Below, in pieces: positions 50,828-55,916 of a stretch of 64,000 nucleotides of DNA. The stretch is taken from contig CAYZIJ010000001.1 of the NCBI GenBank assembly GCA_964478365.1, forward strand, positions 133,267 to 197,266, given 5' to 3'. This DNA is from an uncultured Terricaulis sp. GTDB lineage: Bacteria > Pseudomonadota > Alphaproteobacteria > Caulobacterales > Aquidulcibacteraceae. How positions within the stretch are numbered: the first letter of the stretch is position 1; each line of letters begins with the position of its first letter. A program made the position numbers and the translations under genes. Under the pieces are notes generated by a model. The model had not been told where the DNA came from, did no database searches, and was given only the letters and a program-made list of their open reading frames with translations.

Positions 50828-51147
50828 TCGGACGGCGACCGCTGCTTCGGCGCAGGCAGACGCGCAGCGATCTCCGCCTCAGGCAAAGCTGCGCTCTCGC
50901 TGCCAGTCACCGAGCCCAAGCGATCCTGCGACAAGCGTTCAATGCGTTCCGGGCTCTCAAGCTCCGCGATCTCAGCCCGCAAAGCGCGCATGTCGGCCTC
51001 GCCTTCTGCGATGTCATTTTGCAGCGCGCGCACATGCGCTTCAGTCGCCGCCGCATCGGTCTTGGCTTTGTACAAGCCAACCGCGAGCGCGATGATCAGC
51101 ACCAGTGCAAGAATGTGCAGCGTGCGCCTTAGTTGAGCTTTCGCCAT
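50824..51147 (-). CDS. ftsL: Cell division protein FtsL
   Basis: TM plus coiled coil, LESPERIERL. Lies between rsmH and ftsI. Confidence 0.85.
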   Translation of the reverse strand: MAKAQLRRTLHILALVLIIALAVGLYKAKTDAAATEAHVRALQNDIAEGEADMRALRAEIAELESPERIERLSQDRLGSVTGSESAALPEAEIAARLPAPKQRSPSE

Positions 51148-52115
51148 TCGGCCTCCGCTTTAGGCGCGAGCGACGGCGCTTCGAGATCATCCCACGCCGG
51201 CGCATCCGTTCGCACTGCCCAGCGCAAGCTGGCCGAGCGGGAACGCGGATTGACCAATGTTTCGTCGTCACCCGGCGCAGTGGCGCGGCGGCGCTCCAAC
51301 GTAAAGCTAGGCGCGCGCTCCGGCGGCAGGTCCGGCATGAAACGCGAGCCACGTCCCTGCGCATCGGCGCGCGCCGTGATAAACTGTTTGACCATGCGGT
51401 CTTCCAGCGAGTGGAACGACACCACGACCAAGCGCCCACCCGGCTTCAACGCGCGCTCAGCAGCAGACAAGCCACGCGCCAACTCGCCCAGCTCGTCATT
51501 CACCAGCAAACGCAACGCTTGAAACGTCTTCGTAGCCGGATGCGTCCGCGCGCCTCTGCGGCCGCCGACGGAATCCTCGACCAGTTTCGCAAAGTGCAAC
51601 GTCCGCGTGATCGGCGCCGCCGCGCGCGCTTGCACGATAGCGCGCGCGATGCGGCGGCTCTCATCGTCTTCGCCATAGCGATAGATCAAGTCAGCGAGCG
51701 CGGTTTCGCTGAGCCGGTTCACGGCGTCGGCGGCGCTCAGGCCTTCCATCTCCATGCGCATGTCCAAATCCCCGTCCGCCTGGAACGAGAAGCCGCGATG
51801 GCCCTCGTCGAGTTGGAAGGACGACACGCCCAGATCGAACACGACGCCATCCACAAGTTCCGGAGCGGCTAGATCGCCAAACCGGCCTTGCTGAAGCATG
51901 AATTTACCTTTCGCTGACTCCGAAAGCTCAGCGCCGCGCGCGATCGCGTCAGGATCGCGATCAAAAGCAATGACTTGGCAGTCCGCCCGGCCGAGCATCT
52001 CGCGCGAATAGCCGCCACCACCGAAGGTCGCGTCGATATAGGTGCCGCCCGGTTTGAGGGCGAGCGCGTCCATCGCTTCTGCGAGGAGTACCGGGGCGTG
52101 CCCTGAATTGCTCAT
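51129..52115 (-). CDS. rsmH: 16S rRNA m4C1402 methyltransferase
   Basis: HAPVLL, DATFGGGGYS, DLGVSSFQLD, FQALRLLVNDE, SFHSLEDR, NPRSRSA. Confidence 0.99.
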   Translation of the reverse strand: MSNSGHAPVLLAEAMDALALKPGGTYIDATFGGGGYSREMLGRADCQVIAFDRDPDAIARGAELSESAKGKFMLQQGRFGDLAAPELVDGVVFDLGVSSFQLDEGHRGFSFQADGDLDMRMEMEGLSAADAVNRLSETALADLIYRYGEDDESRRIARAIVQARAAAPITRTLHFAKLVEDSVGGRRGARTHPATKTFQALRLLVNDELGELARGLSAAERALKPGGRLVVVSFHSLEDRMVKQFITARADAQGRGSRFMPDLPPERAPSFTLERRRATAPGDDETLVNPRSRSASLRWAVRTDAPAWDDLEAPSLAPKAEAEWRKLN

Positions 52116-52184: not shown

Positions 52185-52931
52185 ATGATGGGGCGAGGCA
52201 TGGCAAGCGACGGCACAGGGTTCGGCATGGGAACGGGCGCAAGCCAACCGGCGGCGATCGTCATCCAAACCGGCCGCGCCAAGGCGGCCAGGCCTGAGGA
52301 AATCTACCAAGCCTGGCTGCAACTCGCCGAAGCGCGCATCCCGGCCGAGCAAGTGCTGCTCAATGGCTATGCGCTCGCCGCCGCCGATCAAGCGACACCC
52401 GGCGAAGCGCAGCTCGCGCAAGTGCTCGCCTTCTTCGACGGCCTCGCCGCGCAACTCTTCACCCGCCAGACCGATGTCGGCGAAGTTTCCAACTACATTG
52501 CCGGCGACGCCCGCCACTGGCGAGGCTTACTCCGCGGCTTCCGCCAACGCAGCGCGGCCGCCAAGGAAACGCCGCGCTATGCCGAACTCACGCGCGCGCT
52601 CGCCGCGACCGAGTTTCTCGCCAGCGATCCAATCACCGACGAAGAGCGCGCTGCCTTCTCGCTCGACAACATCCGCGCCGAAGTCAGCGCCGACGCCAAG
52701 AGCCTCGAAATCGTCGCCGACCTCCGCTGCCGCTCGCCATCGATGCGCGCCGTCCCAAACATCGCCATCTGTCTGCGCGACGAGAACGGCGACATCTGCG
52801 GCGAAGCCGTGTTCGCGCCGCCCGTCGCAGAACTCCAAGGCCAACGCACCGAAGGCTTCACCGCGACGCTCGAAACGTCGCGCGAGATCACGGATGTGGA
52901 AGTAAGCCTGACGCGGCGCGCGGTGGGCTGA
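52185..52931 (+). CDS. Hypothetical two-domain protein with C-terminal FxLYD/DUF3426-like beta domain
   Basis: Helical N-half. C-half LEIVADLRCRS...ICLRDENGDICGE...FTATL. Divergent from rsmH. Confidence 0.65.
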   Translation: MMGRGMASDGTGFGMGTGASQPAAIVIQTGRAKAARPEEIYQAWLQLAEARIPAEQVLLNGYALAAADQATPGEAQLAQVLAFFDGLAAQLFTRQTDVGEVSNYIAGDARHWRGLLRGFRQRSAAAKETPRYAELTRALAATEFLASDPITDEERAAFSLDNIRAEVSADAKSLEIVADLRCRSPSMRAVPNIAICLRDENGDICGEAVFAPPVAELQGQRTEGFTATLETSREITDVEVSLTRRAVG

Positions 52932-52986
52932 AGCGAGCGCGCGCCCTTGGCAAAATCGGACACCCCGCTTGGATGCTGACAGGTTA

Positions 52987-53046
52987 GCGTCCCTTCTCCT
53001 GGTTAAGGAGAAGGTGGCCGCGCAGCGGCCGGATGAGGTTTACCGG
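52987..53046 (+). repeat. Left arm of ~60 bp inverted repeat (CCCTTCTCC...GGAGAAGG REP type)
   Basis: GCGTCCCTTCTCCTGGTTAAGGAGAAGGTGGCC...GGCCGGATGAGGTTT, near-identical to the reverse complement of 54362..54420. Confidence 0.9.
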
Positions 53047-53117
53047 AGCACGCCGAATTAGCGCGCAGGCTTGACGGTCGTGGTCTGCTTTTCGCCGATT
53101 GCGGACGCTCGTCCGCC

Positions 53118-53294
53118 TTAGCGGGATTCATCCTTGGCCACGGCTATCGTGTGCAGGATGTAGCAGACAGGCGGAACGAGGATCAGCCATTCGATTGGCC
53201 GAACGTCCACGAAAGCTTGGCCGATTGCGAGGATCAGCCAGAGCGCAAACATCACCGCGCTCCAAAGCAAAAAGACGGGAAACAGTCTGCGCAT
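53118..53294 (-). CDS. 58-aa two-TM membrane protein
   Basis: Translated by hand: MRRLFPVFLLWSAVMFALWLILAIGQAFVDVRPIEWLILVPPVCYILHTIAVAKDESR. Below the track cutoff. Confidence 0.55.
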   Translation of the reverse strand: MRRLFPVFLLWSAVMFALWLILAIGQAFVDVRPIEWLILVPPVCYILHTIAVAKDESR

Positions 53295-53464
53295 AAGCCC
53301 CTGATCTCACGCGACCCGAATGCCCGCAACGGGCCAACGTGGCCGTTGCGCGAAATTTCGCGACTGACTTGGTCGCTCCAAAGCTGCCGACGACACCCTG
53401 CCCGTCCCAACGGCTCACGTTCGCCGAGAGCAGACGTTCTCCGGTGAGTATGCGAGCATGTTCT

Positions 53465-53773
53465 ATGAGCTACATAATCACCTTCGATATCGAGCCTGAT
53501 CGCCGGCTCGGTCTGGTTGATGCGATCAAGGCGACTGGGGAATGGGGCGAGGTAACGCCTACTTCCTACTTGGTCGCGTCGCAGCAAACGGTTCGCTCCA
53601 TCATTGAGACGTTGCAGCCGATGCTGGGACCGCAAGACTCTCTGGCTGTGATGACCGTGTCGGCACCCTGGGCCGCGTATTGCGATCCGAACGTCGAGAC
53701 GCTCGCCGTATCGCTGCTGGGAAAAGATGAGACCTGGATACCCAAGGACTGGAACGGCACAGATCGTTCCTAA
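53465..53773 (+). CDS. Stand-alone Cas2/VapD-like ferredoxin-fold protein
   Basis: MSYIITFDI...LVDAIKATGEW...SYLVAS..TVRSIIETLQPMLGPQDSLAV matches the YxIxYDL...AIKxxGxW...DxLxV pattern. Confidence 0.6.
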   Translation: MSYIITFDIEPDRRLGLVDAIKATGEWGEVTPTSYLVASQQTVRSIIETLQPMLGPQDSLAVMTVSAPWAAYCDPNVETLAVSLLGKDETWIPKDWNGTDRS

Positions 53774-53889
53774 AGTCCGCTTTGGGCCAACGTGCGCCAT
53801 CGCGTACAAAATCACGAATGGCCTAGTCGCTCAAAACGTGACGCTTGCTTCAGCAGCCGGGGAGCGGCCTATTCTCGCCGTTTGCGGAC

Positions 53890-54264
53890 TCAATTGACAA
53901 TCAAGTGCACGCGGCCTGGGTAGCGCAGACTATCCACGCCGATCTGGACTTTCGCGGTCGTGCCCAGCCCGGGCAAGCGCAGTATTTCCTCTGTTGAACT
54001 CTGAGTGACCACAAGAGCGCCGCTCGGAGTCGGAAGACTTCCAACGAACGCCAGAACACCCTGAAGGTTTGGCCCACGGTCGAGAATTATTTCAACTTCA
54101 CCATCAACATCAGCAATTGTGCCGACCGCGAGCACTTTGTCCGTTCGCCACACTAGGGGCGGCTCCCGCGCTTCAAGTTGGGGGATGTCCTCAGGCGCAA
54201 AGTCTCCATTCGCATCGTGCACGAAGAAGGCGGGATGATCGAGGTAGCGGCGGGTCTCTGGCAA
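53890..54264 (-). CDS. Hypothetical beta-rich protein (immunity-protein-like)
   Basis: 124 aa, AVGTIADVDGEVEI, FVGSLPTPSGALVV, KVQIGVDSLRYPGRV. Codon usage differs from flanking genes. Confidence 0.6.
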   Translation of the reverse strand: MPETRRYLDHPAFFVHDANGDFAPEDIPQLEAREPPLVWRTDKVLAVGTIADVDGEVEIILDRGPNLQGVLAFVGSLPTPSGALVVTQSSTEEILRLPGLGTTAKVQIGVDSLRYPGRVHLIVN

Positions 54265-54361
54265 TCGGCGCTCTCCTACTTGTGCAGACTAGCACCAATC
54301 ATCTCGAACAAGAGAACGTCCGCTTTGGGCCAGAAACAGACAATGCGACTATCGCCAGGCA

Positions 54362-54420
54362 CCGGGAAACCTCATCCGGCCCTTTCGGGCCACCTTCTCC
54401 TTAACCAGGAGAAGGGACGC
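54362..54420 (-). repeat. Right arm of ~60 bp inverted repeat
   Basis: CCGGGAAACCTCATCCGGCCCTTTCGGGCCACCTTCTCCTTAACCAGGAGAAGGGACGC. Confidence 0.9.
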
Positions 54421-54537
54421 GATTTCCGCTCCCGGCGAAAAGCGGACTCTATTCCGAGCGTAGATTGTCCAGCAGTCGCGCTCGTTCGCATCGGATTCGC
54501 AGGATTTTCATGCGTCACGCCGATAGGCGTGTGCTCG

Positions 54538-54720
54538 CTAAAACGCGGATAGATCAAAACTTATCCTACACCGCGAAACCCGGCGCATACTCCGCCTCGT
54601 CCGCATCATCGAAGGGGCGTTGGTCCAACCCAATGTGAAGCGGGACGTGATGAGTGAGATGAGGCGGCGGGGATTGAAACCGTCGCGGTCCGGGGACCGG
54701 TGTTGGTCTGGCCCGCTCAC
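54538..54720 (-). CDS. Possible 60-aa Arg-rich peptide or structured RNA
   Basis: MSGPDQHRSPDRDGFNPRR...PSMMRTRRSMRRVSR, downstream of a TTGACG -35-like site. Coding status uncertain. Confidence 0.3.
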   Translation of the reverse strand: MSGPDQHRSPDRDGFNPRRLISLITSRFTLGWTNAPSMMRTRRSMRRVSRCRISFDLSAF

Positions 54721-54900
54721 CGTTGGCGCACAGGGCCCGGAGTGAACAGCTCCTCATCTCTTGCGCTGACGTCAAGATCGCGGAGACGCTGAGCGAAACG
54801 CGCAGTTCTCACATTTTATTCCTGGCGCCTTAGCGCGTCAGCTCAGCGTCTCGCCCTTCGGCCGCGGTTCAATACGAAGCGCGACGTTGCAAACACGCGC

Positions 54901-55470
54901 CTAGAGCGCGCTGCTAAACACAATTGGCCAGGCGATGGTGAGCACGAACAACGCAATACCCGCCACCCACTGCGCCCAACGCGCAGAAATAGAGATCGCG
55001 AGCAAACACACGAGCAAGTACGGCACGTTGCCGAGCCCCTGCTGCCAAGCCAGCTCGGGCGTTGGCGTATTCAGATAAACAAGGCTCATCGCCATGAACA
55101 CCAGAACGAGCAAGGCGTAGACGCCATAGAACAGCCGAAAATTCTTCGCGTAAAAATCCTGCATGTCGACCGGGCCGTCAGATGGCGCATCGAGCGAAAC
55201 TGCGGCGCACATCAAGAAAAGCAGCACCGACGAGATGAAGAAAAGCGTGACCGTGTAGAGGTCCCATTCTGCCACACCGCGATAATCCCACATCGCCAGC
55301 CAGTCGATATAGACTTGCGTGATCGCATTCACGATGGCGAGCGTCAGCAGACCGGAATAGCGCACGCGGTCGCGCGCCAACAGCAATCCGCCAACGCGCG
55401 ACAGCAAATGTCCAAGCGCAAGCGCATAGACAAACGACAGCAACACCAAAACGAAATCGAAACTGCCCAT
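54901..55470 (-). CDS. Hypothetical multi-pass membrane protein
   Basis: MGSFDFVLVLLSFVYALALGHLL, about six TM segments. Directly downstream of rnpB. Confidence 0.8.
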   Translation of the reverse strand: MGSFDFVLVLLSFVYALALGHLLSRVGGLLLARDRVRYSGLLTLAIVNAITQVYIDWLAMWDYRGVAEWDLYTVTLFFISSVLLFLMCAAVSLDAPSDGPVDMQDFYAKNFRLFYGVYALLVLVFMAMSLVYLNTPTPELAWQQGLGNVPYLLVCLLAISISARWAQWVAGIALFVLTIAWPIVFSSAL

Positions 55471-55518
55471 CGCCCGCCCCGCCTGCGAGGGCGGTTATCG
55501 AGCGCATGAAGAAAAAAT

Positions 55519-55916
55519 GCCAGTCGGCCTGTAAGCCGGGTTCTGTACCTCTTGCGAGGTGACGACCATTCCTCTGGACCGCACATTGCTGCGCGGTTCT
55601 CGCGACCAACCCGGATGCACGCTCACGGACGAGCTGTACCCCGGATCAAGTCCGGGGCCATTGCATCCCTATTCGGTCTTGCTCCCGGCGGGGCTTGCCG
55701 TGCCACCTTCCTTACGGTCGGCGCGGTGGGCTCTTACCCCACCGTTTCAGCCTTGCCTGTGCTCACTTGCGCGAGCCATCGGCGGTTTGTTCTCTGTGGC
55801 GCTATCCCTAAGATTTCTCTCGGCGGGCGTTACCCGCCGCCGTATCCGCGTGGAGCCCGGACTTTCCTCGAACGCACCGTTTCCAGTTTGCGCCCGCGGC
55901 CGTCCAGCCGACTGGC
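55519..55916 (-). ncRNA. rnpB: RNase P RNA (type A)
   Basis: GCCAGTCGGCTGGACGGCCGC...GAGGAAAGTCCGGGCTC...ACAGAACCCGGCTTACAGGCCGACTGGC. Confidence 0.99.

Follow-up and report, generated by a model that had tools for sequence, protein, structure and literature searches.

Gene cassettes within a doublet of triplex-motif repeats in an uncultured Terricaulis species: evidence for a possible two-layer insertion system

We analysed a window of 64,000 nucleotides (nt) from an uncultured Terricaulis sp. (GenBank assembly GCA_964478365.1, contig CAYZIJ010000001.1, forward-strand positions 133,267 to 197,266). Between rsmH and the RNase P RNA gene (rnpB) of this window lies a feature of 1.43 kb, in which two inverted repeats of ~60 nt, here called arms, enclose 1.3 kb of cargo with three open reading frames (ORFs). 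The original prediction had described the feature as one cargo cassette captured by a doublet of repetitive extragenic palindromic (REP) repeats. We confirmed the three small ORFs between the arms (58, 102 and 124 amino acids, aa) and the location between rnpB and rsmH. The single cassette did not hold up: boundary palindromes and two ~120-nt junction units divide the cargo into three cassettes, which are independent of one another and belong to a separate system. The features are as follows (window coordinates; GC3, GC content at third codon positions).

52986..53048, plus strand: left arm, classed as a triplex-motif repeat of the BoxC/PIT/TM type (inverted repeat; arm hidden Markov model (HMM), 72.3 bits; three-block grammar)
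53049..53082, plus strand: spacer from the left arm to the boundary palindrome, made up of the doublet half-spacer and a few bases like the unit 3' interior (alignment of occupied with empty doublets)
53083..53106, plus strand: boundary palindrome X (GTCTGCTTTTCGCCGATTGCGGAC), matching the junction-unit 3' end
53118..53294, minus strand: cassette 1, 58-aa hydrophobic ORF1 (ORF list; GC3 0.71)
53318..53439, plus strand: junction unit A, ~120 nt (nhmmer, 98.9 bits)
53465..53773, plus strand: cassette 2, 102-aa ORF2 (ORF list; metagenome homologues; GC3 0.70)
53772..53889, plus strand: junction unit B, ~120 nt, overlapping the ORF2 and ORF3 stop codons (nhmmer, 92.5 bits)
53890..54264, minus strand: cassette 3, 124-aa ORF3 (ORF list; nine homologues; GC3 0.59)
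54318..54341, minus strand: boundary palindrome Y (GTCTGTTTCTGGCCCAAAGCGGAC in minus-strand orientation), matching the junction-unit 5' end
54360..54420, minus strand: right arm, classed as on the left, with second hairpin GGCCCGAAAGGGCC (arm HMM, 67.6 bits)
54425..54447, plus strand: additional X-type palindrome, 4 nt beyond the right arm (relative G014 has the same layout of arm, 4 nt and palindrome)

The two arms are inverted copies of one another, as had been claimed. Positions 52987-53019 are complementary to 54388-54420 at 33/33 positions and 53027-53056 to 54352-54381 at 25/30, and the difference is almost confined to the second hairpin (GGCC-GCGCAGC-GGCC on the left, GGCC-CGAAAGG-GCC on the right). 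The order within an arm is CCTTCTCC-TGGTTAA-GGAGAAGG, then a hairpin of 13-19 nt (GGCCGCGCAGCGGCC in the left arm), then a third block, GGATGAGG, which mirrors the purine block and has one T facing an A. Stems of the second-loop hairpin vary by compensatory changes (GGCCGCGCAGCGGCC, GGCCCGAAGGGCC, GTCGGCGAAGCCGAC and GGCGCGAAGCGCC). We observed that 138 distinct copies fitted the grammar CCYTCTCC-loop-GGAGARGG-loop2-GGRTGAGG, with the three-way match kept in 135/138, and that one position covaried across the three blocks (103 copies with T.A*A, 32 with C.G*G and 3 with a mismatch). The outer junctions showed no target duplication or direct repeat (this pair; seven pairs examined) and the cargo held no transposase, both in line with the original prediction.

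This anatomy matches that of the Escherichia coli triplex motif (TM), for which Holder et al. (2015, PMC4666352) gave the consensus (TMECO) CCCTCNCCC-N3-6-GGGNGAGGG-N3-GGGNGAGGG. Shared with the BoxC/PIT/TM repeats are the block order (pyrimidine, complementary purine, mirror purine with one T facing A), the G/C-rich composition, the intergenic position, the arrangement in tandem inverted pairs with a common variable region and the variability of the loci (PMC4666352). In E. coli, some TMs form inverted pairs with one common variable region, and TM loci were rearranged more than control sites, by a mechanism that was left open (PMC4666352). Unlike TMECO, the Terricaulis blocks are 8 nt long with A-rich positions, and the exact arm sequence is restricted to Terricaulis/Vitreimonas-type metagenome-assembled genomes (MAGs); the paper on the E. 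coli TMs reports neither a partner gene nor cassettes (PMC4666352). Loop 2, which is 3 nt in TMECO, is a 13-19-nt hairpin in Terricaulis (mostly 15-17 nt), and because of this longer, hairpin-bearing loop we filed the arms as a variant of the BoxC/PIT/TM family. Judged by their grammar, the arms are triplex-motif repeats and not RAYT-type REPs, the original prediction having called them REP-type; a profile search found no RAYT/Y1_Tnp gene (PF01797) in the genome. The third purine block could fold back as a triplex. The left arm and palindrome X together (52987-53134, minus strand) gave a match to the Rfam radC motif below its gathering score (23.5 bits against 40, E = 0.064); the right arm has no counterpart, and the match is probably due to chance.

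Four good copies of the arm type occur in the genome, namely the two of this locus and those of a tight doublet at C1:104417-104535, together with ~18 hairpins of the wider family. The arms are thus not copies of an abundant repeat, an alternative that had been raised with the original prediction. Among relatives, arms were 90-100% identical between species and always formed convergent pairs. We found ~25 distinct empty doublets with spacers of 20-46 nt and ~15 occupied pairs enclosing 370-1311 nt, which agrees with the earlier statement that such arms usually sit as tight doublets. Exact-arm matches in public genomes carried the titles Terricaulis, Vitreimonas or "Hyphomonadaceae" MAGs, with the exception of one 3.3-kb contig binned as Candidatus Sumerlaeota. 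The triplex-repeat doublets of Terricaulis are low-copy and conserved between species.

A search for a DUF559 nuclease near the arms, suggested with the original prediction, was positive. Both DUF559 (Vsr-like) genes of the genome lie inside convergent triplex-motif hairpins of matching subtype, outside the window:

C26:29429-29776: DUF559 gene 1, in the hairpin-enclosed region C26:29373-29842
C8:35541-35858: DUF559 gene 2, in the hairpin-enclosed region C8:35503-36001

At the 30 DUF559 loci sampled in the genus, hairpins of the family stood on both sides in 15 and on one side in 6. Their density was 52 in 96.6 kb of sampled DUF559 loci, compared to 18 in the whole 3.35-Mb genome. Work on the Caulobacter DUF559 protein VsrA has examined it as a Vsr-like endonuclease, and the part of that source considered here does not mention an association with repeats (PMC12907096). 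In the literature on DUF559 with REP and on cargo in repeat doublets, no arrangement of this kind was found described.

Within the cargo, palindromes X and Y are 24 nt each and are separated from the arms by spacers of 17-36 nt. Junction units read AACGTCCGCTTCGGGCCAACGT ... TCGCCGAAAGCGGACGTT, and A and B are the only full copies in the genome. A second, two-gene cassette pair with perfect X and Y palindromes and no arms is present at C24:26389-27113; it adjoins a different palindromic repeat, of the GTCATCCCGG...CCGGGATGAC type. GC content is 0.583 in the cargo and 0.627 in the window, and the drop from ~0.65 to ~0.58 extends across 53000-55500, continuing past the right arm. The excess of A/T-ending codons claimed for the three ORFs was clear only in ORF3, when GC3 was compared to that of 42 long window ORFs (0.715 +/- 0.041).

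None of the three encoded proteins matched a Pfam or NCBIfam profile (ORF2, none at E <= 1). ORF1 is probably a small membrane protein, its hydrophobicity being judged by eye. ORF2 has four homologues on metagenome contigs (61-89% identity) and ORF3 has nine, and this conservation suggests that both are real genes. The Cas2/VapD label originally given to ORF2 found no Pfam support and marginal fold support. Its structure model was of low confidence (pLDDT 59.7) with a beta-alpha-beta-alpha-beta-alpha pattern; the top Foldseek matches in the PDB were Cas2 proteins (E from 2e-3 to 0.1, none at E <= 0.001), and by eye the N-terminus, ...IITFDIEPDRR, resembles the start of Cas2. We take a Cas2-like ferredoxin fold as a weak lead. 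The ORF3 model (pLDDT 81.5) is all-beta, and its best PDB match was ComJ (4mqd; E 3.3e-4, TM-score 0.56-0.60, 7% identity), an inhibitor of the NucA DNase. A fold like that of a ComJ nuclease inhibitor, and with it the label of an immunity-like protein, is plausible for ORF3 on the basis of this model; no partner nuclease was found near it. A toxin-immunity pair of ORF2 and ORF3 was rejected, as each is found elsewhere without the other; the ORF3 homologues in other contexts without ORF2 likewise show that the two are not a fixed pair.

To compare occupied with empty doublets, we aligned them. The insert in occupied pairs follows ...TGGCGC, which is the dyad centre, TGGCGC|GCGCCA, of empty doublets, and each of the five aligned occupied pairs carried X at one end and Y at the opposite end. 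The earlier view of a doublet holding captured cargo is upheld by this position at the doublet centre. Relatives carry different cargo in the same doublet, which the original prediction had proposed to check. At acs-lrp, one arm pair encloses cargos of 1033 nt in G019, 683 nt in G033, 787 nt in G024 and 545 nt in G079, with no BLAST similarity to each other, and in G020 it encloses two cassettes with one unit between the arms. The outer arm junction on the acs side is shared by G019, G033 and G020. In at least 14 genomes the acs-lrp site is naive and armless, which indicates that the arms themselves arrived by insertion. A second locus also differed in cargo (438 vs 602 nt, both flanks 86-87% identical). 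One apparent pair of empty and filled sites obtained from flank clustering, L071/L022, was a false match.

The acs-lrp gap showed other variation. Judged by eye from its translation, the G019 cargo (L016:2768-3800) is a C-terminal piece of an EF-G/TetM-like GTPase gene with a frameshift, and gene fragments can therefore be carried in cassettes. The gap spans ~1.6 kb in the genome studied here (C3:21012-22626), with no arms, units or palindromes, and 6.6 kb in G085, whereas at least 14 relatives have nothing in it.

The rsmH-rnpB gap is also variable: eight genomes of the genus have 35-80 nt between the two genes, others as much as ~4 kb. The description of an insertion hotspot holds. The nearest relatives, with flanks 87-90% identical, have other contents at this position. 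G077 carries four other cassettes with X/Y-type boundaries; it has the right boundary (Y and a truncated arm) in common with our locus and is missing the left arm. The neighbouring features in the window are:

51129-52115: rsmH (PF01795, E 6e-85)
52185-52931: 248-aa ORF adjoining rsmH, with a weak DUF3426 match (E 0.024)
54901-55470: 189-aa membrane ORF in the rsmH-rnpB gap
55516-55915: RNase P RNA, rnpB (292.6 bits)

The 248-aa ORF is present in some genomes of the genus only. The region of the 189-aa ORF (54895-55502) is a separate insertion of ~610 nt, missing from G077, with junctions GTTGCAAAC...GCATGAAGAAAAAATGCC and none of the arm, unit or palindrome repeats; weak homologues occur elsewhere in three relatives. 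The non-coding stretch between the right arm and this ORF (54555-54894) has an 85% identical counterpart in G077 that lies immediately next to rnpB. The stretch matched no Rfam family and might represent a small RNA under conservation or regulatory sequence beside rnpB.

We observed longer arrays of the same units in relatives, all with their units in one orientation:

G034:C92: 13 units, 13/13 co-oriented
G020:C17: 8 units, 8/8 co-oriented
G033:C30: 8 units, 8/8 co-oriented
G017:C13: 6 units, 6/6 co-oriented
G010:C12: 6 units, 6/6 co-oriented

One further array had 4/4 units co-oriented. The genes between units were mostly single and included TIR-domain proteins, and the junction units were ~80% identical. 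Cassettes were shared between different arrays. Copies of ORF2 at 76% and 89% identity were each flanked by units, with different neighbours, in other arrays. Nucleotide homology of the ORF2 cassette spans 53421-53790, reaching from the terminal part of one unit into the first part of the following one. A cassette of the G077 hotspot was 90% identical to one of the G033:C30 array over 436 nt, and the similarity broke off inside the Y palindrome. We found no gene family in common at the array flanks; a P4-type integrase beside the G033 array is part of a neighbouring island. Mobilisation of the RAYT or IS200 type was rejected for the genome studied here, from which Y1_Tnp is missing. Across the genus, Y1 transposases occurred in 42/80 genomes and did not track arms or arrays; the array-bearing G034, G033, G020 and G017 have none.

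To seek a recombinase, we listed PF00589 matches in ten genomes. Array-bearing genomes encode PF00589 recombinases of 212-231 aa, among them a 224-aa subfamily whose best NCBIfam matches were XerA/XerC-like, far under the cut-offs, and which reached 18.8 bits on the IntI model. We observed that at 12/13 loci of this recombinase a co-oriented unit 5' half lies ~35 nt upstream of the gene, and at least 7 loci have a unit 3' half after it. At G020:C33 the recombinase gene heads at least 5 further units. With the gene between the two halves, the ~120-nt unit resembles a ~0.9-kb recombinase element stripped of its gene, or else the attachment region surrounding that gene. The 224-aa recombinase is present in 29/80 genomes, one copy being in the complete genome G085 (Candidatus Viadribacter manganicus in its records), and its presumed catalytic tyrosine lies close to a C-terminal RYLG. 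It is absent from the genome studied here, so the three-cassette array at our locus is an orphan. Public data contain at least 8000 proteins of this family; their sole annotation is integrase, and they often lie on contigs of 1-2 kb. Across 61 genomes of the genus there was no integron integrase (IntI), the highest TIGR02249 score being 128 bits with a cut-off of 265. The better matches to this model were integrases paired with IS91-family transposases and unrelated to the arrays; such pairs with a ~300-aa tyrosine recombinase recur in several relatives (L028, L030, L032, L034, L168) and gave the best sub-threshold IntI-model scores.

These data suggest, at odds that we judge a little better than even, a structure of two layers, in which a triplex-repeat doublet encloses a mini-array of cassettes belonging to a separate, recombinase-run system. 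The outer layer is an inverted doublet of a polypyrimidine/polypurine hairpin repeat with a third purine block, and the inner layer a mini-array of three cassettes inserted at the dyad centre of that doublet. Each cassette is flanked by palindrome X at one end and Y at the opposite end, with the ~120-nt unit, running from Y to X, joining neighbours. The full-length unit carries the 224-aa tyrosine recombinase gene between its halves. The recombinase would act at unit and palindrome sites and excise cassettes, which could then be inserted into other units or into the centres of triplex-repeat doublets. The outcome would be integron-like arrays and turnover of cargo at fixed landing sites, and the array at our locus would be an older acquisition or one from outside. 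The data show the anatomy, the repeat families, the co-oriented arrays, the sharing of cassettes between loci, the differing cargo of one doublet and the adjacency of recombinase and unit. Movement of the cassettes by this recombinase, its points of cutting and the reason for a targeting of doublet centres we infer from the arrangement of genes and repeats, and the route by which cassettes entered the doublet centre stands on the same footing.

Several observations weigh against the two-layer structure. Arrays are multiple and dispersed within a genome, and most have no adjoining recombinase. The array-bearing G017 (99% complete) and G010 yielded no copy of the recombinase, so its link with the arrays is by association only. 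The units showed no conserved fold (RNAalifold, 0 pairs; proposed helices 73.5% paired vs 71.6% in shuffles), so that attC offers no model for how the sites would be recognised; likewise, single-strand folds of 6/7 units were no better than those of shuffles. The covariation within the arms amounts essentially to two subfamilies and so to few independent changes. In G079 the rsmH-rnpB gap holds three unrelated genes and none of these repeats, and in G014 cassettes lie beside a doublet, not within it.

We weighed this structure against three other explanations. In one, which we consider unlikely, the whole arm-to-arm segment would be a single non-autonomous transposon, that is, a miniature inverted-repeat transposable element with cargo. 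Its terminal inverted repeats of ~110 nt would comprise arm, spacer and palindrome, and an enzyme acting in trans, perhaps the DUF559 nuclease, would move it. The ends are symmetrical over ~110 nt, the naive acs-lrp sites show that arms came by insertion, a target duplication is absent, and DUF559 genes are enclosed by the same kind of pair, all of which fits such an element. Judged by the usual marks of this class of transposon, the segment has no target-site duplication (outer junctions of seven pairs) and no transposase in its cargo. A single transposon also sits poorly with the same arm pair and the same acs-side junction around unrelated cargos in three genomes, and with the fact that most arm pairs are empty. 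Cassettes with their boundary repeats occur armless, both in long arrays and at C24:26389-27113, and a complete segment of arm, cargo and arm was never found at two loci.

Movement might also need no dedicated enzyme, with arms, palindromes and units supplying short homology for RecA-dependent exchange after gene transfer. This would account for the 90-100% identity of arms between species, the ~80% identity of units, the arrays without an adjoining recombinase and the cassettes in a genome that has no recombinase. We nonetheless think it rather unlikely, because strict co-orientation of up to 13 units would not be expected from homology alone, shared cassettes break off at or inside 24-nt palindromes, a length that would not allow RecA to exchange DNA efficiently, and the recombinase gene is embedded in the unit at 12/13 loci. 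Structure-induced instability is more improbable still. Here a doublet in triplex or cruciform form would stall replication or be cut, perhaps by the Vsr-like DUF559 protein, and repair would capture stray DNA at the fragile site. The greater rearrangement of E. coli TM loci compared to controls (PMC4666352) and the hypervariability of the rsmH-rnpB and acs-lrp gaps, repeat-free contents included, are consistent with a fragile site. The position of the insert is constant in five of the five aligned occupied pairs, however, and the one X and one Y end of every aligned insert are too regular for illegitimate capture.

Compared to known systems, the arrays can be set beside integrons and CALINs (attC clusters that have no integrase). 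Cury et al. (2016, PMC4889954) reported Alphaproteobacteria to be without integrons, In0 elements and CALINs, which the authors found "extremely puzzling". Similar to integrons and CALINs, the Terricaulis arrays have co-oriented, mostly single-gene cassettes with a ~120-nt repeat between them, and cassettes are common to different arrays. Orphan arrays without a recombinase recall CALINs; a tyrosine recombinase as candidate enzyme, and a cargo of small unknown proteins, membrane proteins and TIR-domain genes, recall integrons. The arrays differ from integrons in having no IntI (the 224-aa recombinase gave 18.8 bits on TIGR02249), in a junction repeat without a conserved attC-like hairpin, in a recombinase gene that sits inside the repeat and not beside attI, in the presence of several arrays per genome and in their alphaproteobacterial host. 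Integrons proper have an IntI with a specific extra domain, and their attC sites form imperfect hairpins with R and L boxes. A classical integron was accordingly rejected (no IntI in 61 genomes, no attC-like fold of the units).

The outer layer resembles REP/REPIN-RAYT systems in that a structured repeat forms inverted doublets, inverted copies enclose a nuclease-type gene, copy number is low and the repeats are vertically retained at syntenic loci. It differs from them in that the enclosed gene is a PD-(D/E)xK DUF559 gene and not a Y1 HUH transposase. Another point of comparison is the pdif modules of Acinetobacter plasmids, in which short imperfect inverted palindromes surround gene modules in rows and movement depends on XerC/XerD. 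Palindrome-bounded gene modules in rows are common to both. Unlike pdif, the Terricaulis sites do not resemble dif, two palindromes and ~70 nt lie between modules, and a dedicated protein of 224 aa takes the place of the housekeeping XerCD as candidate enzyme. A literature search found no published description of this cassette system, and it is apparently undescribed.

The locus and its relatives point to an integron-like stacking and swapping of single genes that would use other sites and another recombinase. The locus also ties the insertion of cassettes to the BoxC/triplex repeats, which have been linked to genome instability. We further put forward, tentatively and as a possibility that we regard as doubtful, that triplex-motif doublets are dedicated landing pads, and that the cassette system is run by tyrosine recombinases of 214-224 aa encoded inside their own ~120-nt unit. 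If this were true, the landing-pad system would be an alphaproteobacterial functional counterpart of integrons, and it would offer a concrete mechanism for the unexplained link of triplex repeats with genome variability.

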